Shown piece after piece: positions 5,569-62,088 of a stretch of DNA of 64,000 bases. Both the position numbers and the translations under genes were made by a program. The notes under the pieces were generated by a model. It made no database searches and was not told where the DNA came from. It saw nothing but the letters and a program-made list of their open reading frames with translations. Every line of letters starts with the position of its first letter. The stretch's first letter is position 1. The stretch lies in assembly GCA_049518795.1 (NCBI GenBank), contig JBEKRK010000002.1, forward strand, positions 564,146-628,145, in the 5' to 3' direction. The DNA comes from Sedimentisphaerales bacterium. GTDB taxonomy: Bacteria > Planctomycetota > Phycisphaerae > Sedimentisphaerales > UBA12454.

Positions 5569-6654
5569 ATGGACGAGGAAAAATTTACAGGGGAAAACTT
5601 AAACGGGTCGAATAACTCCGCTTTAGGCGAGACCTCGCCTTTGGGCGGGCAGGAATTGCTTGAGACGGAAGGCGCCGAGCATCTTTCATTGCGGGTTGGA
5701 AACAACATAACGAATCGCAGATTAGACAAATATCTCCAGGGCAGATTAAGTCAATTCAGCAGAACTACTATCCAGAAGCTGATAAAAGAGCAGGGGATAA
5801 CAGTAAACGCCAAATATGTAAAGCCCAGCACCAAACTTTCGCCGGGCGACACTGTGGATTTGATTCTGCCTCCGCCGGAGATTAAGGAGATTATTCCTGA
5901 AGATATTCCATTAAATGTTATTTATGAAGATGAGGATATTCTTGTTATAAATAAGCAGGCGGACTTGATTGTTCATCCGGCAAGAGGCTTTAAAAAAGGC
6001 ACGCTTGTAAATGCACTTGTTTATTACGCAAAACAACATTCAAAGCAGCTTTCGAAGGGCAGCGAGGAATTCCGCCCCGGCATAGTTCACAGGCTCGACC
6101 GCAATACTACCGGCGTCCTCGTTATCGCAAAAAATGATACTGCACACTGGCGGCTGGCAAGACAATTTGAAATGAGACAAACAAAGAAGCATTATCTTGC
6201 GATTGTGCACGGAACGCCGGAACTTTCAGCGGATTGCATAAATAAGCCGCTTGCTGTTCATCCGATAATACGCGAGAGATTTGCAGTCAGGCCGGAAATC
6301 GGCAAAGAAGCGATTACATATTATGAAGTTCTTGAAAAATTCAGGGGTTATTCACTGCTCAAGCTTGATATAAGAACCGGCAGGACACATCAAATTCGCG
6401 TTCATATGTCTTATATCAAACACCCCATAGTCGGCGATGAAATGTATGGCGGAAAAATCGTCTATCGCTGGCAGATTGAGGATAAAGAGGCCAAGCCCCA
6501 GGAGCCGCTTTTGGCAAGACCTGCTCTTCACGCCTGGCAGCTCAAATTGACGCATCCGACGACAAACAAGAAAATGACGTTTGAAGCTCCATTTCCGCAG
6601 GATATGCAGCAATTACTGGAAGAATTACGGAAATACAGAAAAACAGGCGTGTGA
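5569..6654 (+). CDS. rluD: 23S rRNA pseudouridine synthase, RluD/RluA family, with long N-terminal extension
   Basis: S4-like region, then the HRLDRNTTGVLVIAK catalytic motif and the RTGRTHQIRVH motif. Confidence 0.9.
   Translation: MDEEKFTGENLNGSNNSALGETSPLGGQELLETEGAEHLSLRVGNNITNRRLDKYLQGRLSQFSRTTIQKLIKEQGITVNAKYVKPSTKLSPGDTVDLILPPPEIKEIIPEDIPLNVIYEDEDILVINKQADLIVHPARGFKKGTLVNALVYYAKQHSKQLSKGSEEFRPGIVHRLDRNTTGVLVIAKNDTAHWRLARQFEMRQTKKHYLAIVHGTPELSADCINKPLAVHPIIRERFAVRPEIGKEAITYYEVLEKFRGYSLLKLDIRTGRTHQIRVHMSYIKHPIVGDEMYGGKIVYRWQIEDKEAKPQEPLLARPALHAWQLKLTHPTTNKKMTFEAPFPQDMQQLLEELRKYRKTGV
5618..5649. repeat. family-1 palindromic repeat (CCGCnTTnGGCGAGACCTCGCCnnnGGGCGG), intragenic copy
   Basis: ccgctttaggcgagacctcgcctttgggcggg, translated as SALGETSPLGG inside rluD. 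Confidence 0.8.
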
Positions 6655-9313: not shown

Positions 9314-9322
9314 TAATTTTTA

Positions 9323-10844: not shown

Positions 10845-10912
10845 GCCACTAAGACACCAAGGCACTAAGTTTTTTAAATATATTTTTCTTCATGCCTTCG
10901 GGACTTCGTGGC
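10845..10912. repeat. family-3 hairpin repeat
   Basis: gccactaagacaccaaggcactaag ... cttcatgccttcgggacttcgtggc. Confidence 0.8.
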
Positions 10913-10921
10913 TGTTTTTAT

Positions 10922-12001: not shown

Positions 12002-12023
12002 GAGTTTTTCCTTTCTTCCATTA

Positions 12024-12091
12024 GCCACTAAGGCACCAAGACACTAAGTTTTTATACTTAATTTTTCTTCGAGCCTTTGTGTCTTTGTGGC
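12024..12091. repeat. family-3 hairpin repeat
   Basis: gccactaaggcaccaagacactaag ... cttcgagcctttgtgtctttgtggc. Confidence 0.8.
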
Positions 12092-12154
12092 TAATTTCTA
12101 CTATTTATTTTAACGAACAAACAAAATACTCATTGTCCGGTCTTGCATACGCCC

Positions 12155-12244
12155 AACTTCTTCGCCTATAAAAATTTACTGAATCCGGCCGTCATACCTC
12201 CTTTCATCCTGATATGTGCCAGGAAAACAGTTTTCTCCGTCTAT
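12155..12244. repeat. conserved intergenic element, copy 1 (69-nt core 12175-12243)
   Basis: The core tttactgaatccggccgtcatacctcctttcatcctgatatgtgccaggaaaacagttttctccgtcta differs by one base from the copy at 12963-13031. Confidence 0.85.
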
Positions 12245-12245
12245 A

Positions 12246-12312
12246 GCCGCTAAGGCACCAAGGCACGAAGTTTTTATATATATTTTTCTTTGTGCCTTCG
12301 GGACTTCGTGGC
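12246..12312. repeat. family-3 hairpin repeat
   Basis: gccgctaaggcaccaaggcacgaag ... ctttgtgccttcgggacttcgtggc. Confidence 0.8.
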
Positions 12313-12319
12313 TATTTTC

Positions 12320-12874
12320 TTATTTTTTCCCTTTTATAAATGCCAACGAACCTAAAGCCAGCAGGCAAATCGTTGCCGGTTCGGGAACATCGCTGGTGAA
12401 ATTGTAGTGCACGCCATTAAAGCCATATAGCTCCATATATCCCGGCTCACCTGGATCAGGACCCTCTAACACGTCGTTCACACCGTTCCAGCCATTCTCA
12501 CTTCCTTGTTCGATCACTGTCTGCACGTTGCTGAGGAACTCTGTGGGAATACCCGTGTCCGCTAAGTCATATGGTGGTTGTTCTTCTTCCCTCTCCGAGT
12601 ATACGTAAACGCGACTGTCGGCGAATCTTAAAACGTCACTGATCACATAGGGGTTTTCAGGCTCCACAATGTTCACATCTCCTACGGTAACACTCGCAGG
12701 GAGATCGTAATACAAAGTAGCGTGCCCACCGACTGATGGGGCAGCTGTGCCATGTGTGAGCGAGCTCCCACCCTCAATGTAGCCTTGGCCATTCTCGTCG
12801 AAGTTGATGATGATATTACCCCATACTGCCGCTGTTAAAACACACACTAAACAAACTGTAATAAACTTTTTCAT
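12320..12874 (-). CDS. PEP-CTERM secreted protein
   Basis: Signal peptide. C-terminus VPEPATICLLALGSLAFIKGKK. Confidence 0.85.
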   Translation of the reverse strand: MKKFITVCLVCVLTAAVWGNIIINFDENGQGYIEGGSSLTHGTAAPSVGGHATLYYDLPASVTVGDVNIVEPENPYVISDVLRFADSRVYVYSEREEEQPPYDLADTGIPTEFLSNVQTVIEQGSENGWNGVNDVLEGPDPGEPGYMELYGFNGVHYNFTSDVPEPATICLLALGSLAFIKGKK

Positions 12875-12944
12875 TTGAGTTTCTCCTAAAATTTATCCAT
12901 AAATTTACTATTTGTGTTTTTTAATGACCCGCCTTTGGCGGGCA

Positions 12945-13032
12945 AACTTCTTCGCACTGCATTTTACTGAATCCGGCCGTCATACCTCCTTTCATCCTGA
13001 TATGTGCCAGGGAAACAGTTTTCTCCGTCTAT
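12945..13032. repeat. conserved intergenic element, copy 2 (69-nt core 12963-13031)
   Basis: Near-identical to 12175-12243. Flanked by the short hairpin cccgcc-tttg-ggcggg at 12928-12943. Confidence 0.85.
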
Positions 13033-13721
13033 TGTTTATTTTTTCTTTTTATAAGTGCCAATAAGCCTATTGATAAAATTGCAATTGTCGCAGGTTCAGG
13101 AACTATCTGAATAGTTAGCGGCATTCCGGCACTTTTCTTCCAAATGAGCGATGCAGAACCTTCATCTGCTATTGCAAACAGATCATTGGACAAGGTGATT
13201 TTAATATGCGTCCAGTTCAACCCGGTTATTGTTGCAGAACCTGACCATTCGTTTGCGTCGTTTCCGTGGCCGGAATATACCGGCATAGGCGGATTAAAAT
13301 TGAGGGACGCAACTTTATCAGACTCGCTACTCGCGAGGTTATGAATGGTCAGTTCTCCAAGGACGTTCACCGAGCCATCGCCCACAATATCATAATCGCC
13401 GCCTTCACTAATCTGTATTGCGGTTATCAGATACCCGGAATTGGCGGTTAAATCAAAAACAAGCGTGTCGCTGACCTCAGGATTTTCAGAGGAGTCGGCT
13501 TCAAAGTTGGTTATAGAGGAGAACGAAAACGTGTTTCCAATAATATTAGGATTGCCATACAACCCCGAATTACTGCCGCCGTTTTCCCACTTGAAAAAGG
13601 CGTTGCTGCCGTTGGGTTCATCCCAGTAAACAAAGCCATTAGCCGGGCTTGTAAAAACAAGATTATGAATAAAGATTATCGCAGCTGCCAAAATAACAAG
13701 CCTAAAAGATGTATTTTTCAT
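13029..13721 (-). CDS. PEP-CTERM secreted protein (paralog family A)
   Basis: Signal peptide. FFKWENGGSNSGLYGNPNIIGNTFSF motif shared with 13721..14563 and 15060..15737. C-terminus VPEPATIAILSIGLLALIKRKNKQ. Confidence 0.85.
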   Translation of the reverse strand: MKNTSFRLVILAAAIIFIHNLVFTSPANGFVYWDEPNGSNAFFKWENGGSNSGLYGNPNIIGNTFSFSSITNFEADSSENPEVSDTLVFDLTANSGYLITAIQISEGGDYDIVGDGSVNVLGELTIHNLASSESDKVASLNFNPPMPVYSGHGNDANEWSGSATITGLNWTHIKITLSNDLFAIADEGSASLIWKKSAGMPLTIQIVPEPATIAILSIGLLALIKRKNKQ

Positions 13722-14563
13722 TACTTCTTCTCCAAATATTTTAAAAAATTTGTTTTCTCATCCTGATTATTTCTTCTTCCGTGGATATAAATCCGCTGCT
13801 GCAGATTTAGAATATTTGTTTTTTTGCCGAATAAAGGCAATATAAAGCCGCCAAGCGTCAGCACAGCAATTGTCGCAGGCTCTGGAACATTATTATCGTA
13901 GGGGATAATCTCAAGGTCGAACGATGTCTTTTTGATAAATGAATTCGACCCCTGCTGACTTGTAGCAATAAGGTTATTGTTTAAAACAATTCGAAGATGG
14001 ATCCAGCCAATATCATTAATAGCAACCCCACCGCTCCAGGGTCCGTTCCCGGTTGCCGAGATTGGCATAGATTGGTTCATCGGAACCGTTGAGCTGCGGA
14101 CCTCGTATTGGCTCAAATTCGTTATGAATATCGCGGCACTGGCTGAAACCTTTCCTATGGTACTGATATCGAAAATGCCGCATTCGGCAACACTGATACC
14201 TTGAATTACGAAGTCGGTCTGAGCGAACATGTCAACCTGAAGGCGGTCCGATGTTATGGCACTTTTGCCGCTAAGGCTCTTGGCCATAAAATTAAAATCA
14301 TTATCCCACGAAAAATGCAGAGTGTGCCCATCCGCAGAAAGTGTCGGATTATCAAACAGGCCTTTATCGCTTCCGCCGTTTTGCCAGTAAAAACCGTCTC
14401 CTGTGCCGCTGGCGTTTGAGTGCCAGGGTATAAGCGCGGCCTGTGCATCGCCGGCATTAAATACCGAATAAAATGGGGAAATAAATAGAATAAACAGCAA
14501 TAGAAAAACTGCGCTGAAATGAGAACGTGAAATGCCCGCATAACTTCTTCTTATACTTCTCAC
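13721..14563 (-). CDS. PEP-CTERM-type protein (paralog family A) with an atypical 33-aa tail after the sorting signal
   Basis: The sorting signal NVPEPATIAVLTLGGFILPLFGKK is followed by TNILNLQQRIYIHGRRNNQDEKTNFLKYLEKK. The stop overlaps the next ATG (TAATG). Confidence 0.75.
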   Translation of the reverse strand: MRSIRRSYAGISRSHFSAVFLLLFILFISPFYSVFNAGDAQAALIPWHSNASGTGDGFYWQNGGSDKGLFDNPTLSADGHTLHFSWDNDFNFMAKSLSGKSAITSDRLQVDMFAQTDFVIQGISVAECGIFDISTIGKVSASAAIFITNLSQYEVRSSTVPMNQSMPISATGNGPWSGGVAINDIGWIHLRIVLNNNLIATSQQGSNSFIKKTSFDLEIIPYDNNVPEPATIAVLTLGGFILPLFGKKTNILNLQQRIYIHGRRNNQDEKTNFLKYLEKK

Positions 14564-15059
14564 AATAACACCTCTTCCCTTTTACTCCGCATAACTTCAA
14601 CAATCCAATAACTTGCTTTTCCGTCTTCCCTGTTTTCTCTCCTGCCGAAATTTTAAAAATCGGCAAGACCGCATTTACGCAATGCGGACAATAACTCCCG
14701 ATAGTGACAGATGAATTTTAAAAAGCTGGTTGTTAAACAGCACAAAGCGTAAGGCAAGCAAGATGCATATAAATAGCTTTGGTGTTTTCTCCCTATTAGC
14801 GGGTAAATGTGTGCTAAAAACGCGCGCAAAAACCTGCAAATCCCAAAATAACGCGTTTTCTCCGATTCCCTATATGTGTTTTCTCAAACTCCCGTTTTCT
14901 CTTCTACCCAATTGTTGAAATGAATTATACGATAAACGAGGTATATTTGTCAAGAGAAAAAAAAGATATTTTTAATATAAAAAGATTTTTTAAAGGAAAT
15001 GCTTAAAATGGCTTTTATATGATAAAAAAACAAGGTTTTTAGGTAATTTTCTTTTTTCC

Positions 15060-15737
15060 TTAATGCCTTTTTCTTTTGGACGCGAGAAAAATCATACCTG
15101 ACGAAAGTAGAATTGCAGTGGCCGGCTCAGGAATCAGTGTTACAGCTATAGCGTTGCTGAGAACCTTCTTTTCTATCCAGGCGCCTGAACTAAAGCCGCT
15201 TACGACAAACAGGTTATTTTCAAGCGTGATTCTGATATGGGTCCAATCCGGCCTGTTGACATCGAGATTTGTCCAAGCCTGCCATTCGCCGGCGGCATCG
15301 GCTGGAAATATTGAAGGCAAGTCAGTTTCAAGGCCGTTGCTTAATGTATCAGTAGTATCCAGATTCTCAACGGAAAGAGTGCCTGATGCTTCAACCAGGC
15401 CGTTGCCTAAAATGCCGTAATCGCCATATTCTATGATTGAAATGCTCTGGAACCTGTAGCCGGGATGAGCAATTAGTTCAAATTCCAGCGTGTCTGAAAC
15501 AGTATTTTCCTGCCTGTCTAAACTTTCAGCTCTGAACAATGAAGGGAAAAACACAAAGGTATTGCCGATGGGAATTGGGTCTCCGAAAAGGCCGTTAAGA
15601 CTTTGGCCGTTGGCCCAGTCAAAATAATCGGTGCTGCCATAAGGCTCGCTCCAAAGAACCGTTGCCTGGACGGATGATAATAGAAATAAAACGGAAACTA
15701 CCGCGAGAAACCTTGTTTTTAGCATTAAAATCCCCAT
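15060..15737 (-). CDS. PEP-CTERM secreted protein (paralog family A)
   Basis: Signal peptide. YFDWANGQSLNGLFGDPIPIGNTFVF motif. C-terminus IPEPATAILLSSGMIFLASKRKRH. Confidence 0.85.
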   Translation of the reverse strand: MGILMLKTRFLAVVSVLFLLSSVQATVLWSEPYGSTDYFDWANGQSLNGLFGDPIPIGNTFVFFPSLFRAESLDRQENTVSDTLEFELIAHPGYRFQSISIIEYGDYGILGNGLVEASGTLSVENLDTTDTLSNGLETDLPSIFPADAAGEWQAWTNLDVNRPDWTHIRITLENNLFVVSGFSSGAWIEKKVLSNAIAVTLIPEPATAILLSSGMIFLASKRKRH

Positions 15738-16098
15738 AAATATAGTATATCTTTGCGTTCAGCCGTTAAAATCGGCAAAACCCCTGAAGTTAGACTTTCA
15801 GCCCTAAAAGCTGCAATATAAATGCAACCTGACTCTTTTTACCTTTTACAAATAAAATATAATAAATAAATCAGGCAAAGTCAAAAAAGAGTGAGATTTT
15901 TCGGCTCGGGTAATTGTAAGATTAATTCAGGTTACAATAGCCCGACATAAATAGATATATCCTATTAAAATTTCAATAATTTCATTTTTTCCAACTAATT
16001 TAATTCAAAAAAACCCCTTAAAACATCCTATAAAAAGCCTGTTTTTGTGAAAATAATCGGGTTTTTCCATAAAAATTTTAGCTAAATCAATTTTTTTC

Positions 16099-16126
16099 TT
16101 GAATTTATATATTTTTGTGATATAAT
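16099..16126 (+). promoter_or_regulatory. sigma-70-type promoter candidate (TTGAAT-N16-TGATATAAT)
   Basis: ttgaat at 16099-16104 and an extended -10 tgatataat ending at 16126, about 140 nt upstream of the 16269 ATG. Confidence 0.45.
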
Positions 16127-16268
16127 GCTATAATAGTTTGGGAGTTTGGAGAAAACATCGTATAGCGAAAGCATATTTTTTCTGTTTATATTTTTATAGT
16201 AACAGCTCTGATTTTTAAACAGATTTTATAAAAAGCGACAAAAACAATCTTTTATTTGGAGGTGTGAA

Positions 16269-16913
16269 ATGGTAAGAAGATTAATATTATTAGCTGCTTT
16301 TTTTGTAATTTTCCTTCCTTGTCTGTCTATTGCGAATACCGATGGTCCATATACTGCATCGATTTCGAGCGCATTGACGGATTGGACAGGAACACTATCA
16401 TTTCAGCAGTTTAATCCGGCTTTAGGCACATTAAATAGCGTAGAAATAGAACTGTTTGGGTCGATGGATACGGTTCTGACTGTTACTAATAATTCAGATG
16501 AAGTTTCGTCCGGCCATGCTAACACTCATCTTAAGATAACAGTTCAGGATTTGGGGCACAACCTTATTGACGCTCCGCAAATAGATATGTGGAGTCCGGA
16601 TTTTGACTACGTTCTTGCTGCTTATCAGTCACTAACTTCCGGCTTGCTCACCAAAAATGACACATATTCACATTTATATACTAATTCGGTAATACTTAAC
16701 GAGTTCACAGGAATCGGCAATATTGTGCTGGATGCCGGGACGTTTACAGAAACAGCTTTGTTCAACACAGGCGGAAATACAGATACGGGCCAGGTTACGC
16801 ATGCATTATTAAATGGAACTGTTACATACAATTACACTGTTCCTGAACCGGCTACAATTACTTTGCTGTGTGCCGGTGCTTTTGCTCTCTTGAAAAGAAA
16901 AAGCGGCAAATAA
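16269..16913 (+). CDS. PEP-CTERM secreted protein
   Basis: SD ggaggtg. Signal peptide. C-terminus VPEPATITLLCAGAFALLKRKSGK. Confidence 0.85.
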   Translation: MVRRLILLAAFFVIFLPCLSIANTDGPYTASISSALTDWTGTLSFQQFNPALGTLNSVEIELFGSMDTVLTVTNNSDEVSSGHANTHLKITVQDLGHNLIDAPQIDMWSPDFDYVLAAYQSLTSGLLTKNDTYSHLYTNSVILNEFTGIGNIVLDAGTFTETALFNTGGNTDTGQVTHALLNGTVTYNYTVPEPATITLLCAGAFALLKRKSGK

Positions 16914-16930
16914 CGTCTAAGACTGATATG

Positions 16931-16953
16931 GGCGAACGTAAGTGTTCGCCTTT
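16931..16953 (+). terminator. hairpin terminator candidate
   Basis: ggcgaac-gtaagt-gttcgcc followed by ttta. Confidence 0.4.
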
Positions 16954-17047
16954 ATGGATTATACAGGAATTTACTTCAAATGAATCGGCCATCAGGGCTT
17001 TTACTTAATGCAAGGTTAAAAAAATTTAAATAATTTTTATTTTTCTC

Positions 17048-17076
17048 TTGCATTTCTGTTTTCGTTATGATATAAT
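17048..17076 (+). promoter_or_regulatory. sigma-70-type promoter candidate (TTGCAT-N17-TGATATAAT)
   Basis: ttgcat at 17048-17053 and tataat at 17071-17076 preceded by tga. About 420 nt upstream of the 17503 ATG. Confidence 0.45.
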
Positions 17077-17502
17077 ACCTATCAGAATTGGGGTGTAGGT
17101 TAAGGGTTATTGTTACAAAGCGTCTTGGTGTTCATCTTAAGTTGTCTTTGTCATATTGCTTTGTTGCGCTGACTTGTCCGCCGGAGGCGGGCTTTAGTCA
17201 AATCTTTATTTTAATCGAGAGAAGAGGTTATCTGGTAGAGAATTTGCGCGCGTTTTTAAAGCGATAACAATAACTGTTTAATTTAGAAAGGGTATCAAAA
17301 AAGAGTTCTTCAAATTTTTCCGCCGACAATAGTTTGCGCTATGAGCGGGAAAAGCTGAATGAACAGGGGAATAGGAGAAACATCCATAAACCTTAAACAC
17401 AGGACTAAATACTAAGCGTTTGAATTTATGCGCTGAGCGGATAGTCCGACTCGACTTCGCTCGTCGAAGTCGAATAGAAACTAAAATTGAAGGAAAACAA
17501 TA

Positions 17503-18165
17503 ATGAAAATAGACCGTTTGATAATCGTGTTATTGACGATTCTTTCAGTCGCATTTGCGACCAGTGATGCAAAAGCCAGTTATACGGTGGCGACGTTTTT
17601 CGACCCATCAAATAGCAGCAGTAATCCGCTGTTTAACGTTAATTTTACAACTCTGAAACTCACAGGTGGATGGGATGATTCCAAAACCGGCTTGACACTG
17701 CAAGTTCCTTGTACTGATCACAACTATCCTAATGCGTGGTTTAATTTAACATCGCCAACCGGAGCACCTTATATAGGTATAACAAACACATATACGTTAC
17801 CGTGGGGAACAGTTGGTCAAACTGGTCCGGGCGTAGTTAAATTTTACAAGGACGGCACCTCGACAAACCCGTTGATAGTTGTTGGCTTCGACGGCGGCGT
17901 TGTATCGATGAGCAACTTTGGGGCCAGTGAACTTACCGCCAATACTGTAACAATCACGGGCTCTGAGATTTCAGGGACATTAACACAGGAAGAATTTTCT
18001 TTCAGCTTTGCCAATACAGTGTCCCTACCAAACAATGGAGGCTTTACTGCCACAGCGTCATTTACTTCATCGGCGGTTCCTGAACCGGCGACGATTGGGT
18101 TACTTTGCCTTGGTGCTTTGAAATTGGTTACAAGGAAAGGCAAGAACATAAGAGAAGGCAAATAG
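17503..18165 (+). CDS. PEP-CTERM secreted protein (paralog family B)
   Basis: Signal peptide. ASYTVATFFDP...LKLTGGWDDSKTGLTLQVP motif. C-terminus VPEPATIGLLCLGALKLVTRKGKNIREGK. Confidence 0.85.
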   Translation: MKIDRLIIVLLTILSVAFATSDAKASYTVATFFDPSNSSSNPLFNVNFTTLKLTGGWDDSKTGLTLQVPCTDHNYPNAWFNLTSPTGAPYIGITNTYTLPWGTVGQTGPGVVKFYKDGTSTNPLIVVGFDGGVVSMSNFGASELTANTVTITGSEISGTLTQEEFSFSFANTVSLPNNGGFTATASFTSSAVPEPATIGLLCLGALKLVTRKGKNIREGK

Positions 18166-18202
18166 GATGCCTCGAGGAATCTAAAAGATAAGGAACAAAA
18201 TA

Positions 18203-18841
18203 ATGAAAAATCGTCTTATAATACTCGTCTTACTGACGCTTCTTATAATCGCATTTACGACGTTTGAGACAAGAGCCAGTTATACGGTGGCAACGTTTTT
18301 CGACCCGGCCCAGACAAATAGCAAATATCCGTTGTTTGATGTTAATTATGCAACTATGAAGCTTACCGGCGGCTGGCCTGACAGCAAAACTGGGTTGACT
18401 CTGCAAATTCCTTGGAGCGGCCATACCTTTTCAAATGCTTGGTTCGAGGTAAAACAGCCGATAGCGCTATCTGCTCCGACAATGGGTTACTGCAGCACCG
18501 GTCCCGGCGAAGTTGATTTTTACAAGGATAACACAAGCACAAATCCGTTATTGATTATCCAATTTGACTACGGCGTTATGTCTCCATCTGGCTTTGGCTC
18601 CAATGATGCATATGCTCTTGCGAATGTGAGAATCACCGGTTCCGAGATAACAGGAACGCTTTCGGATGAAGTATTTGCTTTCAGCTTTGCCAATCGGGCA
18701 TATTTGCCGGGCAGTTCTAAATGGAGTGACGGATGGACCGCTACAGCGTCGTTTACTTCATCGGCGATACCTGAGCCTGCCACTATAGGGCTTCTGTGCA
18801 TGGGTGGGCTGGCTATCCTTAGAAAAAAGAAACGCAGCTAA
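18203..18841 (+). CDS. PEP-CTERM secreted protein (paralog family B)
   Basis: ASYTVATFFDP...MKLTGGWPDSKTGLTLQIP motif. C-terminus IPEPATIGLLCMGGLAILRKKKRS. Confidence 0.85.
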   Translation: MKNRLIILVLLTLLIIAFTTFETRASYTVATFFDPAQTNSKYPLFDVNYATMKLTGGWPDSKTGLTLQIPWSGHTFSNAWFEVKQPIALSAPTMGYCSTGPGEVDFYKDNTSTNPLLIIQFDYGVMSPSGFGSNDAYALANVRITGSEITGTLSDEVFAFSFANRAYLPGSSKWSDGWTATASFTSSAIPEPATIGLLCMGGLAILRKKKRS

Positions 18842-18871
18842 GAAAAAAAAGCAATATCTTTAATATAGGAA

Positions 18872-18899
18872 GGTCGGAAGGAACCGTTCCGGCCTTTTT
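18872..18899 (+). terminator. intrinsic terminator candidate
   Basis: ggtcggaa-ggaaccg-ttccggcc followed by ttttt. Confidence 0.55.
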
Positions 18900-18960
18900 G
18901 CGCACAGTGTGTGGATTTTGGGAGGCGTTACAGAATTATTAAGCCCGAGAACAAACTGTT

Positions 18961-19671
18961 ATGGATAGCAAAAGGTGTATCGTCGGCGAAAAAACTGGCA
19001 AACACCTTTTTTTAGACTTCAAAACAACTTTTTTGTTATTTGCCGCTTTTACAACGACAGTCTCTATCGTTATTGCAAATCCATTAATCCAAAAACAGAC
19101 CTTCTTTAGTGAAATCCCCAATTTTTCAACGTTATTAACATTCGATAAATTTAGCGCCGGCGGGACGCTTGCATCCGTTAGAATAACTATCCAATTACAG
19201 ATAAATGGCGGCACACTTATCATTGACAATGACGGCGATAGCGATGTTTCCGGAACAGTTGAATTCGGCATCTTTGGAAACGCCGATTCAATCGAGGTAA
19301 ACCTGCCTTTACTTGGCAGAGAAGCGTTTTGCAGTCAACCTTTTTATCTTGGTAGTAATGTAGGTGATGGAATAGGTGATTATGACCCTTCACCGCCTGA
19401 TGGGATGCAATTTACAGGCGGCAGTAACAGCGGCACTGTATCAGCATTCGTTGAGGATAAGTTTTTGAATAATTATATCGGCACAGGAACATACAACATC
19501 GCCGTTGGTATTATACAATTGGTTAATTGCGACAATACAAATATTGAATATTCTATTGTAACGCCTATCACAACCAGCGGTTTTATTGAGGTGGCTTACA
19601 ATGTTCCCGAACCGGCAACGATTTGCCTGCTGGCAGTTGGGGCTTGGACGCTTCTGAAAAGAAAAGGTTAA
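18961..19671 (+). CDS. PEP-CTERM secreted protein
   Basis: Hydrophobic N-terminus. C-terminus VPEPATICLLAVGAWTLLKRKG. The N-terminal FxxFxxxxGTLxSVxI motif resembles that of 16269..16913. Confidence 0.8.
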   Translation: MDSKRCIVGEKTGKHLFLDFKTTFLLFAAFTTTVSIVIANPLIQKQTFFSEIPNFSTLLTFDKFSAGGTLASVRITIQLQINGGTLIIDNDGDSDVSGTVEFGIFGNADSIEVNLPLLGREAFCSQPFYLGSNVGDGIGDYDPSPPDGMQFTGGSNSGTVSAFVEDKFLNNYIGTGTYNIAVGIIQLVNCDNTNIEYSIVTPITTSGFIEVAYNVPEPATICLLAVGAWTLLKRKG

Positions 19672-20099
19672 TTGTGAGAGAAGATTTTGCTGAAAAAGCC
19701 CTGTTTGCCATTGTGTTTGCCGTGGACTTTTTCGAGATGCTTAAGCACCATTTCAGGCACTTCATAAGCCTTGAAGGGTTTTACGATATAATCGACAGCG
19801 CCTTTCCTGATGGCAAGGTCGATGTCTTTTGAGTCTTCCTTGGATGTGAGCATAAAGACCGGTATGTGCATTGTGTCGCCGTTGCGTTTAAGCTCTTCCA
19901 AAACCTCCATACCATCCATTTCAGGCATCATCCAGTCCAGCAGTATGACGTCAATCTTTTTGGTCTTCGCGATGTCAAGACCGTCTAAACCTGAGGCAGC
20001 GGCAAAAACCTCAAAACCTTTGTTTGAAAGGGCGTTCTGCAAAAGCGTCCTTATCATCGTGTCATCGTCAATTACTAAAATTTTTATAAGTTGCTGCAT
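19668..20099 (-). CDS. stand-alone response regulator receiver (CheY-like)
   Basis: ILVIDDD...DVILLDWMMPEMDGMEVL...TSK receiver motifs; no output domain. Confidence 0.85.
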   Translation of the reverse strand: MQQLIKILVIDDDTMIRTLLQNALSNKGFEVFAAASGLDGLDIAKTKKIDVILLDWMMPEMDGMEVLEELKRNGDTMHIPVFMLTSKEDSKDIDLAIRKGAVDYIVKPFKAYEVPEMVLKHLEKVHGKHNGKQGFFSKIFSHN

Positions 20100-26118: not shown

Positions 26119-26185
26119 TCCGCCTTTGGCCCGGCCTCGCCTTCGGCGAGAGCCGAGGCGGGCGAGACCTCGCTCGCTGGCGGGG
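26119..26185. repeat. composite/nested family-1 palindromic repeat, intergenic
   Basis: tccgcctttggcccggcctcgccttcggcgagagccgaggcgggcgagacctcgctcgctggcgggg. Confidence 0.75.
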
Positions 26186-26235
26186 TTGTTTGGTGAGGCC
26201 GCTAACTGATTAACTCCAGATTGACAGGTGAAGAA

Positions 26236-30064: not shown

Positions 30065-30508
30065 CTATTTGTTTTCTTTTTCGAGACTATCAGGCAAAGT
30101 CATAATAAAATCCCTGATTTCATCACGTGTTTTTCTAAAAGCGTTCATAATTACTTCTTCATCGCCTATAAGGAATGTAGGGTCCGCAAAAGGTTTGTGT
30201 ATTAGCTTTCCCCTGTCATAAAAAACGGGACAGTTTTCCTTTGCATTGTCGCAGAGCGTAATCACATAATCAAAATCTATTCCGACAAGGTCGTTAATGT
30301 GTTTTGAAAATTGTTCGGAAATATCGACATCTGCCTCAGCCATTACCTTGACGGTTCTTGCGTTCAAACCAGCAGGAGCAATGCCGGCAGAGAAGGCTTC
30401 TATACAATCGCTTTTAAGCTTTCTTGCCCAGCCTTCGGCCATCTGGCTTCGGCAGGCATTACCGGTGCATAAGAATAATATTTTTAATTTTTCTTTTTTT
30501 ACAGCCAC
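30065..30508 (-). CDS. arsC: arsenate reductase, LMW-PTP/thioredoxin-coupled type
   Basis: ILFLCTGNACRSQMAEGW P-loop. Start placed at in-frame GTG 30508, because the 34 upstream codons of the track ORF are encoded by the family-3 repeat. Confidence 0.8.
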   Translation of the reverse strand: MAVKKEKLKILFLCTGNACRSQMAEGWARKLKSDCIEAFSAGIAPAGLNARTVKVMAEADVDISEQFSKHINDLVGIDFDYVITLCDNAKENCPVFYDRGKLIHKPFADPTFLIGDEEVIMNAFRKTRDEIRDFIMTLPDSLEKENK

Positions 30509-30641
30509 AAAGACACCAAGACACAAAGTTTTATATAATAACATAAAGATACCAAGACACAAATTTTTTAATATATCAATTTTTCTTAGTGCCTTCGCCT
30601 GTCCCGCCATAGCCTTTGGCGACGGCGGATGTCTTAGTGGC
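30504..30641. repeat. enlarged/nested family-3 hairpin repeat
   Basis: Left arm gccacaaagacaccaagacacaaag, plus an extra partial arm. The right arm cttagtgccttcgcc...gtcttagtggc is interrupted by a cccgcc...ggcgacggcgg insert. Confidence 0.75.
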
Positions 30642-31998
30642 TATAAATTGCGGTGGATTTTCCAGCCAGAAAACCGCTGGAAAATGCGAATTGCAGATTG
30701 TAACCCCCACAGGGGCCGTCAACATCAATTACTTCTCCTGCAAAAAACAGGCCGCTGCACAATTTCGACTGCATAGTTTCGGAGTCAATCTGTGTGATAT
30801 CAATGCCGCCTCTTGTTACTGTTGCCTTTTCTATTGATTCGGTTGAAGTAATGGTAAGCCCGAGATTTTTCAGTTTGCCGACAAGTAATCTCCTGGTTTG
30901 TTTGTCTATTTGACCTGCCCCAATTTGCCCCAGCCGACCCACCAAAGGGCGAGGTCTCGCCGAAGGCGGATTTATAAGGCATATCTGCTGGGCAGCCGCT
31001 TTAGGCAAAAATTGGGACAGAACAGAAACAACATTTTGTTTGGCATTCTGGGCAAAATAATCGGCAAGTTTTTTATCGAGCTCCTGTGAGTCTATAGCGG
31101 GCAGCAAGTCAATTGAGATTTCGATTTTATTCTTATTGAGTTTATCGGTTATGAATCGACTCAAATCAAAGACGGCAGGGCCGCCGATGCCTTTATGAGT
31201 GAAAATCATCGGGCCGGATGCAGAGATTTTTTTGTTTTCAATTTTACAGCTTATCTCGACATTTGTTATTCCTACACCTGCTAAAGATGAGCAAAACTTT
31301 TCAGCAGTTACAAGCGGAACAACGCAGGCCTTCGGCTCAATGATTTTATGTCCGAAGTCCTGGGCGAATCTGAAGCCGTCGCCGGTTGAGCCAGTCTGCG
31401 GCCAGCTTACGCCGCCGGTGGCAATTATCACAGATTTTGCCTCAATGTTAAATTTTTTGGACGACACTATGAACAAATCTTTCTCTTTTTTAACGGATTG
31501 AACTTTTTTACCGTAAAAAATTTGTATTGTAGGGGCAGACCTATGTGTTTGCTCAAAGGGTGAATACGCAGGTTCGCCCCTACAGTATTTTTTAATCTCA
31601 TCAAGCAGTATTCGTTTGACATCGCTTGAACGCTGGGTTTTTGGAAATACGCAGCCGTCGGCTTCTTCAATTGTTTCAAGGCCGCGGCGGCGGAAAAATT
31701 CTCTTAAACTCTGCGGCGGGAATTCATAAATGCAGTGGCGGACAAATTTGTCAAAAGGTTTGAATGCCCTGATAAATTCGTCAATTGTGCCGGTATGGGT
31801 CAGGTTGCATCTGCCTCGGCCGGTAAGCAGAAGTTTCCTGCCGGCAGTTGTGTTCGACTCGATAACAACAATTTTCGTAGGGGCAGACCTGCGTGTCTGC
31901 GCCGGGCGAACACATAGGTTCGCCCCTACATCCGCTGCGGCAGAAGCAGCCATCATGCCAGCCGGACCGGCGCCAATTATGCAAATGTCAGATTCCAT
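30634..31998 (-). CDS. HI0933-family NAD(P)/FAD-dependent oxidoreductase carrying three repeat-derived insertions
   Basis: [14 protein letters not shown] dinucleotide fold, GRKLLLTGRGRCNLTH, C-terminal GGYNLQFAFSSG. Start set at ATG 31998 (MESDICIIGAG); the track ORF begins at 32148. Confidence 0.8.
   Translation of the reverse strand: MESDICIIGAGPAGMMAASAAADVGANLCVRPAQTRRSAPTKIVVIESNTTAGRKLLLTGRGRCNLTHTGTIDEFIRAFKPFDKFVRHCIYEFPPQSLREFFRRRGLETIEEADGCVFPKTQRSSDVKRILLDEIKKYCRGEPAYSPFEQTHRSAPTIQIFYGKKVQSVKKEKDLFIVSSKKFNIEAKSVIIATGGVSWPQTGSTGDGFRFAQDFGHKIIEPKACVVPLVTAEKFCSSLAGVGITNVEISCKIENKKISASGPMIFTHKGIGGPAVFDLSRFITDKLNKNKIEISIDLLPAIDSQELDKKLADYFAQNAKQNVVSVLSQFLPKAAAQQICLINPPSARPRPLVGRLGQIGAGQIDKQTRRLLVGKLKNLGLTITSTESIEKATVTRGGIDITQIDSETMQSKLCSGLFFAGEVIDVDGPCGGYNLQFAFSSGFLAGKSTAIYSH
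30938..30969. repeat. family-1 palindromic repeat, intragenic
   Basis: cccaccaaagggcgaggtctcgccgaaggcgg, translated on the minus strand as PPSARPRPLVG. Confidence 0.8.
31529..31583. repeat. family-2 palindromic repeat (GTAGGGGCrrACC...GGTTCGCCCCTAC), intragenic
   Basis: gtaggggcagacctatgtgtttgctcaaagggtgaatacgcaggttcgcccctac, translated as RGEPAYSPFEQTHRSAPT. Confidence 0.8.
31878..31929. repeat. family-2 palindromic repeat, intragenic
   Basis: gtaggggcagacctgcgtgtctgcgccgggcgaacacataggttcgcccctac, translated as VGANLCVRPAQTRRSAPT. Confidence 0.8.
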
Positions 31999-41914: not shown

Positions 41915-42610
41915 ATGCAGCAGGCAAATGAAAAGGACAAATTTACTGCCGAGAGGCAGGCAATGGTTAGAATCCAGCTAAAAAGCAGGGATATCACAGA
42001 CCCTGCCGTTTTGCGGTCAATGGCTCAAATTCCGAGAGAAAAATTTATACCTGATGAATTTCTCGAACAAGCCTATTATGACGGCCCGTTGTCAATCGGC
42101 TGCGGCCAGACAATAAGCCAGCCTTATATTGTCGCTTTAATGACACAGGAATTGAAAGTTGATAAAGATTGTGATGTTCTCGAAATCGGAACAGGCAGCG
42201 GCTATCAGACCGCGATACTTGCCAAACTTGCCAAAGAAGTCTGGACAATCGAAAGAATAGGAAATCTTACATTAAAGGCGAGGCAGATTTTAGCTGAATT
42301 AAACATAACAAACGTGAAATTTCTCACAGGCGACGGCACAGTCGGCTGGCCTGAAAAAAAACAATCCGCCTTTGGCGAGACCTCGCCCCCGGGCGGGTTT
42401 GACAGGATAATAATTACAGCCGCGACTCCACAAATGCCCAAGCCGCTGATTGAGCAGTTGAAAACAGGCGGCCTGGCTGTTTTGCCGCAGGGAGCGGATT
42501 ACGTGCAGGAGCTTATTGTAATTGAAAAAACCGCAAGCGGCTTAAAATCTAAATTCGTTTGCGGATGCAGATTTGTTAAACTTATCGGAAAGTTCGGCTA
42601 CTCGGAATAA
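41915..42610 (+). CDS. pcm: protein-L-isoaspartate O-methyltransferase with repeat-derived insertion
   Basis: GQTISQPYIVALMTE, VLEIGTGSGYQTAILA, DRIIITAA. Start set at ATG 41915 (MQQANE); the track ORF begins at 41810. Confidence 0.9.
   Translation: MQQANEKDKFTAERQAMVRIQLKSRDITDPAVLRSMAQIPREKFIPDEFLEQAYYDGPLSIGCGQTISQPYIVALMTQELKVDKDCDVLEIGTGSGYQTAILAKLAKEVWTIERIGNLTLKARQILAELNITNVKFLTGDGTVGWPEKKQSAFGETSPPGGFDRIIITAATPQMPKPLIEQLKTGGLAVLPQGADYVQELIVIEKTASGLKSKFVCGCRFVKLIGKFGYSE
42366..42397. repeat. family-1 palindromic repeat, intragenic
   Basis: ccgcctttggcgagacctcgcccccgggcggg, translated as SAFGETSPPGG inside pcm. Confidence 0.85.
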
Positions 42611-44967: not shown

Positions 44968-45591
44968 ATGAAGAAGTTAATTGCAATTTGTGCGGCAGTA
45001 ATTTTTGTTATGGCGGTGTCCGCTGGCGCGGCAACCGTCAATTACACGGTGTCGGGCTGGGGGCCAACGCAGTTTCCCGGTCCTCTCACACCACCGGAAG
45101 ACGCTCCTTGGGGCCCTGACGGTTATCCGGGCGATACGGTAGAGCTTCAAACCTACAATGGCACCCTCGATCTCACGCCGGGCACCTACGTTCAGAAGAT
45201 CAACACGCTTCTCTGGACAGTAGATTACACCTATGGAGGTTCACCGGAACCTTGGCCTGATATGTTTCTCAACGACAGCCTAACTCGCAATATGACTTTA
45301 GGCGGGGTTCCTGGCGCCCTCGACCAAACTGTCAATCTCCTGGTCAATTACTGGTACGACTACCTCTCGCTTGATTCCGGGCCAACGACGACTTTCATCG
45401 TCCAAGGTTACCGAGTTGACGTTACGCCGCTTTTACTCCCAGAGAAGAAAATGAACAACTGGAGCGGCGACAATCCCTGGACTCAGTCTCCGCGAGACAT
45501 AATGGCGAGATTCGACGTTATTATTCCCGAACCGGCGACAATTTGCCTGCTTGGTCTTGGTATTTTAAGCTTATTGCGGAAAAATAAATAA
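44968..45591 (+). CDS. PEP-CTERM secreted protein
   Basis: SD ggaggaag. Signal peptide MKKLIAICAAVIFVMAVSAGA. C-terminus IPEPATICLLGLGILSLLRKNK. The track ORF begins at 44947. Confidence 0.85.
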   Translation: MKKLIAICAAVIFVMAVSAGAATVNYTVSGWGPTQFPGPLTPPEDAPWGPDGYPGDTVELQTYNGTLDLTPGTYVQKINTLLWTVDYTYGGSPEPWPDMFLNDSLTRNMTLGGVPGALDQTVNLLVNYWYDYLSLDSGPTTTFIVQGYRVDVTPLLLPEKKMNNWSGDNPWTQSPRDIMARFDVIIPEPATICLLGLGILSLLRKNK

Positions 45592-45627
45592 ATCAAATTT
45601 TGTTTTTGTTTAAGAAAGTGAGGAATA

Positions 45628-46347
45628 ATGAAGAAGTTAATTGTTGTTTGTGTAGCGATTCTGATGTTTTGCTGTACTGGTTTCGCAACAGCCGGTATAA
45701 CGACCGGCGTGTATGTCGATTCGATGCCGCTGAATTTTACTTCATTGTCGGAAACAAACCCGGCAGGAATGTGGTATCAAATTGAGCATTGGGCGGCAGC
45801 GGAAAAAGCGGCTATAATGGCCGGGACGTTTGTGGATATGGCGAACGGCACCTATCCAGGCACACACACCATCTCGATCGACGATGACGTTCTTACAGTT
45901 ACGGGTTCCGCCAGTGCATACGGAAAGGCGATTATGTGGTCCTTTCTTCTCAAGACCGATGAGGCTGTAAATATCCAGGTCAGAGAGGCGTGCACCTATA
46001 CTTTTGTTCAAGGCGGAACGACATCCATTTGGGATGATGTTGCAGGCGCCTGGTTGGCTGGAAGCAGCACTATGGCTTGGCAATCTATCTACAACGCTAA
46101 TCCTTATGGTGTAAATATACCATTGGCAGCAGGCGGCAATATTTATCAGGGGTGGTGGGAATATATGGATTCAACAAGTTCGTTGCTGCCTGATTTGACC
46201 GCTATCAATTATTACGTTGAGTATTCTACTAACCAGGGCGGCACATGGGTCCCCGGCGCATCAGGCTCAGTCAGCGTAATTCCGGAACCTGCGACGATTT
46301 GTCTGATTGGTCTTGGCGTATTAGGTTTACTGCGAAAAAAACAGTAA
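45628..46347 (+). CDS. PEP-CTERM secreted protein
   Basis: Signal peptide. C-terminus IPEPATICLIGLGVLGLLRKKQ. Confidence 0.85.
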   Translation: MKKLIVVCVAILMFCCTGFATAGITTGVYVDSMPLNFTSLSETNPAGMWYQIEHWAAAEKAAIMAGTFVDMANGTYPGTHTISIDDDVLTVTGSASAYGKAIMWSFLLKTDEAVNIQVREACTYTFVQGGTTSIWDDVAGAWLAGSSTMAWQSIYNANPYGVNIPLAAGGNIYQGWWEYMDSTSSLLPDLTAINYYVEYSTNQGGTWVPGASGSVSVIPEPATICLIGLGVLGLLRKKQ

Positions 46348-46383
46348 ACAGAAAAATACAAATATTTTTGGAAGGAGTAGAGA

Positions 46384-47142
46384 ATGAAAAAGTTTATAAC
46401 AATTTGTGCAATAGCAACCGCCTTAAGTTTTGGGGTGAATATGGTCTGTGCTACTGAATTGCCTTATACCACCCCGAGCATTAACGGCGACATTACCACA
46501 ATGCAGGGGTCGGGTGGAACTTTTTCCTGGACCGATAGTTCAAGTGCGGTGGGAAATTGGTCGGCAAAATTGGATTGGCCCGGAACGGGCGGATACGCCC
46601 AGGCGAGAGTCTTTCCCGCACCTGCCGGTGTTACTACCGTCAGCAGTGTTAATTCCTGGAGCTATTGGGCGAACGCACCCGAAGACTACATCCCCAACCT
46701 CAGTTTCGTATTGGACGATCCCGACATAAGCAACAACGGGCCCATCTATTCGGGAGCAGGATACGATACAGTGGTCACAATCTGGCCTGCCAATGACAGC
46801 CTCGGTAATACGTGGCTGAACTTCACAAGCAACCAGAGTCTTAGCTACATCATCTGGACCAACGCCTACAGTGGCGGCCCGGTTATGAAGACTATGACTT
46901 GGTCGGAGTTTAAGAACCCATGGTCTCAGTGGGGAAACAACTTTGATTTTTCGAATGCCGCCGTGCTCAGGATGAACATCGGCAAGGGGGTCATTGGAAC
47001 AAACCAGACGATAACCGCATATGCAGACGACTTCGTCCTGAATAGTTACACCTACACTTTTGAACCTCTTCCTGAACCGGCGACGATGGTTCTATTGGCA
47101 ATCGGAGCAATGGCACTTTTGAGAAAAAAACCCGCCTTTTAG
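46384..47142 (+). CDS. PEP-CTERM secreted protein
   Basis: Signal peptide. C-terminus LPEPATMVLLAIGAMALLRKKPAF. The last 3 codons and the stop lie inside a family-1 repeat. Confidence 0.85.
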   Translation: MKKFITICAIATALSFGVNMVCATELPYTTPSINGDITTMQGSGGTFSWTDSSSAVGNWSAKLDWPGTGGYAQARVFPAPAGVTTVSSVNSWSYWANAPEDYIPNLSFVLDDPDISNNGPIYSGAGYDTVVTIWPANDSLGNTWLNFTSNQSLSYIIWTNAYSGGPVMKTMTWSEFKNPWSQWGNNFDFSNAAVLRMNIGKGVIGTNQTITAYADDFVLNSYTYTFEPLPEPATMVLLAIGAMALLRKKPAF

Positions 47143-47175
47143 AACAGCTAAAAGGCGAGGTCTCGCTGAAGGCGG
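47131..47175. repeat. family-1 palindromic repeat (expanded copy) at a gene 3' end
   Basis: cccgccttttagaacagctaaaaggcgaggtctcgctgaaggcgg. Confidence 0.75.
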
Positions 47176-47202
47176 ATAAATAGACCGAAATACTTTTTAA
47201 TA

Positions 47203-52216: not shown

Positions 52217-52246
52217 CGGGGGTAAACACACAGATTCGCCCCTAAT
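52217..52246. repeat. family-2 repeat, half copy
   Basis: gggggtaaacacacagattcgcccctaa. Confidence 0.5.
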
Positions 52247-52320
52247 TTTCAGGTATTATACCATAGAATGGCTTAAAAATCAAGTTTTTAACCGTCAATA
52301 AGCTGCTTTTATTACAGAAC

Positions 52321-61287: not shown

Positions 61288-62088
61288 TTACTCCGCTATG
61301 GGATGGCTTACGCCACTCGGATTCTTGTAAATTACCTCAGCTTCGCCTGCCAGATGCTTTATGACGATTACATCCGGCAGCAAGTCAACCAGCAGGTCAT
61401 CGTGTGAGCTTGCGAGGACAAAGATTTTGCCGGTTTTTGTCGCGAATTTACGCAGGTTATAGCTGATAATCGCTGCTGTTACACGGTCGAGATTGCTGCA
61501 GAACTCATCGGCGAAGATAAATTGTTTATCGCTTGTAATAGCCTTTGCTATGCGGTATCTGTATTTTTGTCCTTCACTTAAGTTGGCGGGAGAATTGAGA
61601 ACGCAAAAGACATCTGTCAGACCCGCGCAGCTTAAATTTCTAAGCGTTTCAAGAACCCCGCACCTATTGTCCTGTTTCGTCCCCAACCCAAAATCATTTC
61701 GATTGCCATTTGTTGAATCAGTTGTTTCTTGGTTTTGGCACTGTGCAATAGGTGTGGGGTCGATGCAGTCAACGCAGGTTTTGTCATCGGGCAGGGGAAT
61801 ATCATCAATGTTGATTTTTTCACCGCCGGCAAAAGTGTTATAAAATTCTCTTAGCAGAACGCTTTTTCCGCTGCCGGAAGGGCCGGTGATGTAGGCAATT
61901 TGACCGGACGACAGTTTAATATCGCATTGATGCGTAATGGCGTTGTTTTTTAGTCTTTGAACCGTTATTCCAAAGGCTCGCAGGACGTCCGCGACTTTTT
62001 CAGTGACAGGCAGATTCCAATCGAATTTTTTGTCCGCCTTAAGCGAGACCTCGCCAAGAGGCGGGTTGGCAGATAATATTGTAATCAT
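61288..62088 (-). CDS. soluble ABC-type ATPase (no transmembrane partner nearby)
   Basis: Walker A GPSGSGKS, signature LSEGQKYR, Walker B FIFADEF, D-loop SNLD, H-loop SSHD. Codons 8-18 are encoded by a family-1 repeat. Confidence 0.75.
   Translation of the reverse strand: MITILSANPPLGEVSLKADKKFDWNLPVTEKVADVLRAFGITVQRLKNNAITHQCDIKLSSGQIAYITGPSGSGKSVLLREFYNTFAGGEKINIDDIPLPDDKTCVDCIDPTPIAQCQNQETTDSTNGNRNDFGLGTKQDNRCGVLETLRNLSCAGLTDVFCVLNSPANLSEGQKYRYRIAKAITSDKQFIFADEFCSNLDRVTAAIISYNLRKFATKTGKIFVLASSHDDLLVDLLPDVIVIKHLAGEAEVIYKNPSGVSHPIAE
62034..62065. repeat. family-1 palindromic repeat, intragenic
   Basis: ccgccttaagcgagacctcgccaagaggcggg, translated on the minus strand as PPLGEVSLKAD. Confidence 0.8.

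Follow-up and report, generated by a model that had tools for sequence, protein, structure and literature searches.

Three in-frame copies of two palindromic repeat families in an HI0933-type flavoprotein gene of a Sedimentisphaerales bacterium

Palindromic repeats that are read in frame within genes have been described in bacteria before, and a 64-kb stretch of contig JBEKRK010000002.1 from a Sedimentisphaerales bacterium (Planctomycetota), the whole of which is called the window here, contains a gene for an HI0933-type flavoprotein with three such segments. The closest described system is that of the intragenic repetitive extragenic palindromic (REP) sequences with a GTAG head, which are mostly dimers encoding 20–30 amino acids (aa) and reach their maximum in Opitutus terrae, a bacterium of the Planctomycetes-Verrucomicrobia-Chlamydiae (PVC) superphylum (Di Nocera, De Gregorio & Rocco, 2013, BMC Genomics 14:522, PMC3733652). 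Genes that were hit twice are known, such as uvrA of Opitutus terrae with two REP dimers, and REPs also occur in pseudouridine synthase and repair genes; they were interpreted as neutral loop or linker inserts that survived selection, with disruptive ones being purged (PMC3733652). The Rickettsia palindromic elements (RPEs) are, in the summary given in PMC10969869, selfish palindromic repeats that reside in frame in unrelated housekeeping genes (Ogata et al., 2000, Science 290:347). In-frame intragenic copies are also known of MITEs (miniature transposable elements with inverted repeats), namely the enterobacterial repetitive intergenic consensus (ERIC), QMITE1 of Coxiella and the MITEs of Anabaena, which are small non-autonomous repeats that fuse with host open reading frames (ORFs) (PMC10969869).

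In the flavoprotein gene, two unrelated families of short hairpin repeats have very probably landed three times in a functional gene, and all three copies are predicted to be read through as loops. Two copies belong to a family (family 2) that resembles the REPs of Di Nocera et al. in its GTAG head followed by a stem-loop, in the outward GTAG head-to-head dimer with a spacer of 1–3 nucleotides (nt) and heterodimer stems, in the approximately 20 aa added in frame to known enzymes, in the two insertions per gene and in the host from the PVC superphylum. Unlike in that study, the host belongs to the Sedimentisphaerales and the gene has a third insert from an unrelated, untagged family (family 1); in addition, the class GTAGGGGCGAACC.../GTAGGGGCAGACC... 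was not found in the text or the intragenic table (peptide motifs) of that paper. With the RPEs, as described in PMC10969869, the repeats share the in-frame position in conserved genes, the absence from orthologues, the fold-compatible sites and the predicted extra peptide segments. However, RPE-1 is about 100–150 bp long, Rickettsia-specific and hosted by a reduced intracellular genome, whereas the elements described here measure 33 and 53–55 nt and reside in a free-living sediment bacterium, with family 1 being read in several frames and orientations. By size and host, membership in the families RPE-1 to RPE-10 is implausible, and an analogy alone is claimed.

The flavoprotein gene and its insertions

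The gene and the three repeat copies have the following positions in the window:

30634..31998, minus strand: gene for an HI0933-like / TIGR00275 FAD flavoprotein, 454 aa, intact, host of the three repeat inserts
31877..31929, minus strand: family-2 copy A, 53 nt, encoding VGANLCVRPAQTRRSAPT (residues 24-41), a GTAG-headed REP head-to-head heterodimer
31529..31583, minus strand: family-2 copy B, 55 nt, encoding (C)RGEPAYSPFEQTHRSAPT (residues about 138-156, net gain of 18 aa)
30938..30970, minus strand: family-1 copy, the 33-nt nested hairpin TCCGCCTTCGGCGAGACCTCGCCCTTTGGTGGG, encoding PPSARPRPLVG (residues 344-354) in a loop of the helical subdomain

An earlier note on this DNA, made from the letters alone, had claimed that the frame stays open through three in-frame repeat insertions, and this holds with sites that were correct to within one base: positions 30634-31998 of the minus strand form a single open frame of 454 codons (1365 nt) free of stops and frameshifts. 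By profile matches (PF03486 HI0933_like, 235.7 bits with a cutoff of 50; PF22780 HI0933_like_1st, 96.9 bits with a cutoff of 27; TIGR00275, "aminoacetone oxidase family FAD-binding enzyme", 382.8 bits with a cutoff of 183.8), the encoded protein is a member of the HI0933-like / TIGR00275 family and a predicted FAD-binding oxidase. It keeps the dinucleotide-binding motif GxGxxG as GAGPAG (residues 9-14) and the acidic residue E47 that ends strand beta2, and an identical protein is publicly available as MGA2915765.1, an NAD(P)/FAD-dependent oxidoreductase from a Sedimentisphaerales metagenome-assembled genome (MAG). The gene order MatE - flavoprotein - LMWPc - unknown - thioredoxin-reductase-like is common to the window and its relatives, and this conserved neighbourhood indicates that the homologues are true orthologues.

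None of 20 close homologues and none of the 115 in the total set (50-79% identity; 70-79% for the syntenic orthologues) had any of the three segments in the alignments, which rules out ancestral or family-wide loops. The first loop, between helix alpha1 with the GAGPAG motif and strand beta2 of the Rossmann motif, has a length of 14 in 102 of the 115 homologues (12 in the closest) but of 29 here; the second, between helix 124-136 and strand 157-162, has a length of 6 in 111 homologues versus 24 here, and the third of 17-18 in 100 homologues versus 28 here. A codon alignment was made with two orthologues (L001 and L002); the closest homologue, P0002, has 79% identity. In this alignment, the family-1 copy amounts to exactly 33 additional nt within the codon AA|T, with target bases neither duplicated nor lost, and relative to every close homologue it adds exactly 11 aa. 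Copy B corresponds to exactly +54 nt net, and copy A to +45 to +51 nt net, depending on which homologue loop length is taken as ancestral. No target duplication was evident at the family-2 sites in the codon alignment. By these alignments and the repeat counts given below, the three segments are lineage-specific insertions of repeat copies. The junction peptides predicted across the repeats include AADVGANLCVR, YCRGEPAYSPFEQTHR and INPPSARPRPLVGR.

Structure, distribution and reading frames of the two repeat families

Family 2 is built from a pair of units in inverted orientation whose GTAG ends point outward, and both copies end in GTAGGGGC...GCCCCTAC. The left unit reads GTAGGGGCGAACCTryGTGTTCGCCC and the right unit GGGCAGACACryAGGTCTGCCCCTAC; copy A is composed of the unit GTAGGGGCGAACCTATGTGTTCGCCC, a G and GCGCAGACACGCAGGTCTGCCCCTAC. 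In each unit of both copies, the GTAG head is followed by an 8-bp or 6-bp stem with a 6-nt loop, a layout that recurs in 122 listed elements of other genomes. The spacer between the units comprises 1 nt in copy A and 3 nt (TTT) in copy B; elsewhere, spacers of 0-11 nt occur. That the segments are copies of two repeat families, as the earlier note had proposed, is borne out by counts far above expectation, with 6 and 4 matches of the family-2 13-mers in the window versus 0.68 and 0.45 expected, and 9 matches of the family-1 core GGCGAGACCTCGCC versus 0.14 expected. As DNA, copy A folds into two hairpins (-14.7 kcal/mol, z -3.5) and copy B has a folding energy of -9.1 kcal/mol. Copy A deviates from the cross-phylum consensus at one position and copy B at four, all of them in the stem, and these four stem mutations together with the weaker fold indicate that copy B is an old, decaying hairpin in a still-intact frame. 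Copies A and B are not recent duplicates of each other: they differ at approximately 10 positions, and their loop sequences have changed places between the left and the right unit. Besides the two full copies, which are both located in the flavoprotein gene, the window contains 1-2 degenerate single units of this family:

52233..52258, minus strand: degenerate single family-2-like REP unit, TTAGGGGCGAATCTGTGTGTTTACCC, outside ORFs and upstream of rnpB

REP families are usually lineage-specific. In a scan of one genome per species for elements of 52-63 nt, the near-identical doublet GTAGGGGCGAACCT..GTTCGCCC / GGGCAGACAC..AGGTCTGCCCCTAC was found in more than 15 phyla and at least 120 loci, with only the spacer being variable. 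The hosts among the matches listed include members of Thermodesulfobacteriota, Chloroflexota, Nitrospirota, Omnitrophota, Cyanobacteria, Bacteroidota, Acidobacteriota, Zixibacteria, Cloacimonadota and Phycisphaerae, and a cultured isolate, Dysgonomonas alginatilytica DSM 100214 (Bacteroidota), also has the doublet. Among the same matches, the lengths covered the whole range of 52-63 nt allowed by the pattern without favouring multiples of three, and 9 of 122 doublets (7%) were located within an ORF that continued for 60 codons or more on both flanks; for random positions, the share was 61%. By this comparison, the class is extragenic as a rule and the two copies in the window belong to an intragenic minority, of which TrmFO (L098) and Mfd (L126) provide genuine in-frame cases in other phyla. 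The doublet of two inverted REP units with short spacer and outer GTAG, as well as the mostly extragenic location of the class, resemble REPINs, the REP doublets associated with REP-associated tyrosine transposases (RAYTs) (Bertels & Rainey, 2011, PMC3116915; Nunvar et al., 2010, PMC2817692). In contrast to REPIN-RAYT systems, the family-2 doublet is near-identical across these phyla and the RAYT motif scan, which is taken up below, was negative. A string search of the searchable literature for the family-2 strings and the repeat cores returned no relevant paper.

Family 1, TCCGCCTTnGGCGAGACCTCGCCnnnnGGCGGG, is a nested hairpin that has neither a GTAG nor a CGTC tag and measures 33 nt in each canonical copy of the window; a flanking copy, at 26119, is degenerate. 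Of the seven copies in the window, four are located in coding sequences. The copies outside the flavoprotein gene are:

42365..42397, plus strand: copy in pcm (protein-L-isoaspartate O-methyltransferase, about 41915-42610, plus strand), in frame, adding SAFGETSPPGG
5617..5649, plus strand: copy in the N-terminal tail of rluD (5569-6654, plus strand), read SALGETSPLGG, upstream of the S4 domain
62033..62065, plus strand: copy in an ABC-type ATPase gene (61288-62088, minus strand), N-terminal residues 8-18, opposite orientation, PPLGEVSLKA
26119..26186, plus strand: two adjacent degenerate copies (26119/26152), in no long ORF
47148..47180, minus strand: copy in no long ORF

The start of the ABC ATPase gene overlaps the upstream stop. 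In Pcm, the insert comprises 11 aa in the GWP...FDRIIITAA loop, is absent from relatives with 81% identity and from the structures of E. coli and V. cholerae, and corresponds to an 11-aa gap in the PDB homologues 4l7v and 3lbf. The insertions in the flavoprotein and pcm genes have in common that they add exactly 33 nt, lack a flanking direct repeat and leave the target bases intact. MITEs possess terminal inverted repeats and cause target-site duplications, whereas these two mapped insertions show neither a duplication nor a target loss. Both families are palindromic, and a MITE with target-site duplication was ruled out, as no duplication was found.

Beyond the window, family 1 was surveyed in a metagenome scan that yielded at least 117 contigs, and among the matches listed these came mostly from freshwater-sediment and peat samples. 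Of the copies listed with enough flanking sequence, 28 of 93 (30%) are located in long ORFs, versus 56% of random positions, and the metagenome copies are translated in at least five modes of frame and orientation. Six of seven ORFs with a family-1 copy that were tested encode real enzymes (GH2, glutamate synthase GltB, a DinG-like helicase, a class I/II aminotransferase, GH116 and an HI0933-like protein). In 750 kb of metagenome loci carrying family 1, no family-2 head was found. A distant HI0933-like homologue from another metagenome (L214:1539-2975, minus strand; 38% identity) also has a family-1 copy, SAFGETSPAGG, which is located at a different site after the ILYGxxV strand, and this protein contains further long inserts as well.

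The two families differ in what an in-frame position can reveal about selection. The canonical family-1 core is stop-free in all six frames, with variable bulge bases occasionally yielding TAA or TAG, and the element spans 11 codons; thereby, any reading frame is preserved by construction, and since family 1 never shifts the frame, one of the three in-frame cases is uninformative about selection. Family 2 has a length that is not a multiple of three, and the TAG of its GTAG head closes one frame per orientation, so that the in-frame state of both copies reflects survivorship under purifying selection, or compensation. The argument of the earlier note that three in-frame insertions out of three point to selection applies therefore to the two family-2 copies, but not to the family-1 copy. 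It had also stated that family 1 is read in the flavoprotein gene in another frame and another orientation than in rluD and pcm. The frame indeed differs, by +1, but the coding-strand orientation is the same and only looks reversed in window (plus-strand) coordinates because the flavoprotein gene lies on the other strand; the copy read in opposite orientation is the one in the ABC ATPase gene. One family-1 element thus has three readings in four window genes (SAxGETSPxGG, PPSARPRPLVG and PPLGEVSLKA), which argues that no particular peptide is selected. Copies A and B of family 2 are likewise read in different frames over their left halves.

Constraint on the gene and competing explanations

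The earlier note had left open whether the protein is tolerant or the gene is decaying with its frame preserved by chance, and all measures of constraint favour a tolerant protein under selection. The ratio of non-synonymous to synonymous substitution rates (dN/dS) relative to four orthologues is 0.14-0.18, similar to the 0.11-0.18 among those orthologues, and the identity to an outgroup of 51 sequences (51.3%) is at the top of the range of the orthologues (48.6-51.8%), meaning that the branch has not been lengthened. The protein conforms to all 43 columns that are invariant in the 116-sequence alignment and keeps nearly all near-invariant residues. AlphaFold predicted the fold with a mean confidence (pLDDT) of 92.1 and a predicted TM-score (pTM) of 0.88 from an alignment of 116 sequences, whereas an alignment of 21 sequences was too shallow (pLDDT 67.9). 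The only blocks of 10 residues with pLDDT below 80 were 31-40 (64), 141-150 (56), 341-350 (66) and 351-360 (76). The only low-pLDDT segments are those predicted as coil at 29-41, 137-156 and 342-352, which are placed between H12-28 and E42-47, H124-136 and E157-162, and H333-341 and H353-358 of the model. The model has a three-domain fold with target-normalised TM-scores of 0.84-0.88 to 2i0z, 4cnj, 2gqf and 3v76, and HMMER alignments to PDB structures have gaps at the insert sites. Comparison with HI0933-family structures, which the earlier note had suggested along with the dN/dS estimate, thus places the inserts as coil between secondary-structure elements. In the predicted structure, the fold and the FAD-binding motifs are untouched and the inserts appear as extra surface loops. 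Judged by substitution rates, conserved residues and predicted fold, the flavoprotein gene is constrained, presumably functional and not decaying.

According to the explanation that we consider very probable, family 2 is a REPIN-like, GTAG-tagged head-to-head heterodimer, for which we infer, by analogy with known GTAG REPs, that a RAYT/TnpA-REP tyrosine transposase of the HUH type mobilises it in the form of single-stranded hairpin DNA. For family 1, the untagged 33-nt nested hairpin, the precise and duplication-free insertion would also fit a mechanism involving single-stranded or hairpin DNA. The three copies would be translated as extra coil loops that join secondary-structure elements, and purifying selection would remove those family-2 copies that land in the protein core or cause a frameshift, leaving only in-frame loop survivors to be seen. 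The inserted peptides would then be by-products.

Four observations weigh against this explanation or limit its support. First, the family-2 copies measure 53 and 55 nt, yet the net changes are +45 to +51 and +54 nt; with these unequal lengths, a simple precise insertion is insufficient, and one has to assume either a compensating indel or some trimming of the target. None of the precise excisions of 53, 54, 55 or 57 nt from the family-2 sites restored the modal loop length. A-runs flank both sites, and compensating slippage is a possible source of the mismatch. Second, both full family-2 copies of the 64-kb window are located in one gene, a clustering that permissiveness explains only loosely. 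Third, a crude scan of six-frame ORFs from the window and 120 family-2 loci for HUH and NPV(R/K)xGL motifs detected no RAYT, which is a weak negative. Fourth, dS is saturated (>1), and dN/dS averages over the whole divergence and not just over the time since the insertions.

We regard a further reading as a tentative possibility: in Planctomycetota of sediments and their neighbours, family 1 may represent a palindromic element that is undescribed and compatible with coding, and coding sequence may in addition be a refuge for dead repeat copies such as copy B. If this were true, the fixed, stop-free 33 nt, the precise insertion and the location of approximately 30% of the copies in real genes would make family 1 a counterpart of the Rickettsia RPEs in free-living bacteria. 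A refuge would arise because imprecise deletion breaks the frame of the host gene, and it would account for the intragenic position of both full family-2 copies, the only ones in the 64 kb.

It appears improbable that the inserted peptides were recruited for a function, for example as new surface loops in interaction, regulation or localisation, and were positively selected rather than tolerated. The inserts stay in frame, copy B has been kept as an ORF despite its decayed DNA palindrome, protein activity is, according to a speculation of Di Nocera et al., altered by some intragenic REPs (PMC3733652), and in Pcm of the relative L005, the loop that was hit in Pcm of the window contains another, different insert. 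However, selection against imprecise deletion would explain the retention equally well, and the inserts are predicted to be disordered coil and are absent from every relative. Recruitment is also difficult to reconcile with family-1 DNA that is read in three ways in four window genes and in at least five modes in metagenomes, or with family-2 copies that differ in the frame of their left halves.

Even less credit is due to the view that the gene is a decaying pseudogene, with a frame that is open by chance and an accumulation of repeats that marks relaxed constraint. Of the approximately nine palindromic repeats in the window, three fall into 2% of its length (Poisson P ~0.001, or ~0.05 after correction for ~55 genes), orthologues elsewhere also gather inserts, so that the family may be weakly constrained, and saturated dS would hide a very recent relaxation. 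Against decay stand the absence of stops and frameshifts from 1365 nt, the retention of all 43 invariant residues, a dN/dS and a branch length matching those of the orthologues, the confidently predicted fold and the conserved synteny. Moreover, copy B has gained four hairpin-breaking substitutions within an otherwise intact gene, which implies long survival after the insertion. An origin of the segments from assembly or binning, i.e. from repeat-induced chimeric joins in a MAG contig, can practically be dismissed even though repeats are a classic cause of mis-assembly, as the inserts of 33-55 nt do not reach the length of a read and the same gene continues in frame to either side of them, the 454-aa protein is found unchanged on 4 contigs, which range from 50 kb to 0.7 Mb and come from several sources, and a second (ENA) assembly is 100% identical over 9365 nt.

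Several other candidates were rejected. In a pattern scan, none of the three repeats coincided with a terminator-like site, and the number of sites was equal to the shuffled expectation, which rules out intragenic transcription terminators. In Rfam at gathering threshold, only rnpB was detected in the window, which excludes a known RNA family, and a plasmid origin was discarded because megablast gave no match.

Other repeat insertions in the clade and implications

Further insertions were observed among the flavoprotein homologues, including palindromic ones that orthologues in relatives have at different sites. The orthologues P0032 (L005:10001-11308) and P0029 (L006:275-1720) from another Phycisphaerae lineage share a palindromic element of 69 nt with perfect 15-bp terminal inverted repeats (ACCCCGTTAGAGACA...TGTCTCTAACGGGGT) that encodes the peptide VDPVRDKASKMPDGCQRRPVSNG. 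P0029 has a further in-frame insert of 102 nt, and the dN/dS of this pair is 0.18. Other lineage-specific inserts of at least 8 aa number about ten among the 115 homologues. In Pcm of the same relative (L005:3622-4332, minus strand), an unrelated insert of 16 aa (region of FDSFDFTQDKSAQGRPEQR) occupies the loop in which the window has its family-1 copy; this loop is permissive and was hit independently in the window and in L005.

The RNase P RNA gene of the window (52378-52771, plus strand; Rfam RF00010, 290.8 bits) contains two additional palindromic segments rich in AT (about 52475-52502 and 52533-52560), which are positioned at the tips of two helices and count as insertions when scored against the model. 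Both are members of a third family of dispersed repeats, TTTGAGATTTGAGATTTGAAATTTCAGA, with further copies at 27631 and 48486, and represent an RNA-gene parallel to the inserts in protein loops. Between the stop codon of the flavoprotein gene and the LMWPc gene (30465-30575), a CACAAAGACACCAAGACACAAAG-type repeat and a GCCGTCGCCAAAGGCTATGGCGGGACAGGC palindrome are present. Repeats of the CACAAAGACACCAAGACACAAAG type also occur at 4537, 9246, 10847, 12026 and 12248, and both sequences are found downstream of the orthologue in L006 as well (1720-1824), where the CACAAAGACACCAAGACACAAAG-type repeat supplies the C-terminal residues ...ATKTQRH of P0029. Elsewhere in the window, the regions 7200-20000 and 45500-47200 hold clusters of genes that share a terminal VPEPATI.LLGLGA-like motif, encoded by TTCCTGAACCGGCGACGAT..., and these endings look like PEP-CTERM-type sorting signals; an internal tandem repeat of 134 nt is present at 7482-8152.

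The phenomenon as such and its standard explanation are already published for intragenic REPs and RPEs, and the present case is well supported but ordinary. It extends the in-frame colonisation of genes by palindromic repeats to the Sedimentisphaerales within the Planctomycetota, and its modest additions are an element of 33 nt that by its very build is compatible with coding sequence, along with a doublet of REPs that is conserved across many phyla. For annotators, the consequence is to expect REP-derived peptides (VGANLCVRP...RSAPT, SAFGETSPxGG) in conserved proteins from sediment MAGs, and such repeat-derived peptides should be taken neither for novel motifs nor for marks of pseudogenes. 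For the HI0933 family, the gene represents a triple natural insertion scan, in which three loops accept 11-18 extra residues, one at the alpha1-beta2 turn of the Rossmann motif, another ahead of the beta-meander and the third in the helical subdomain.

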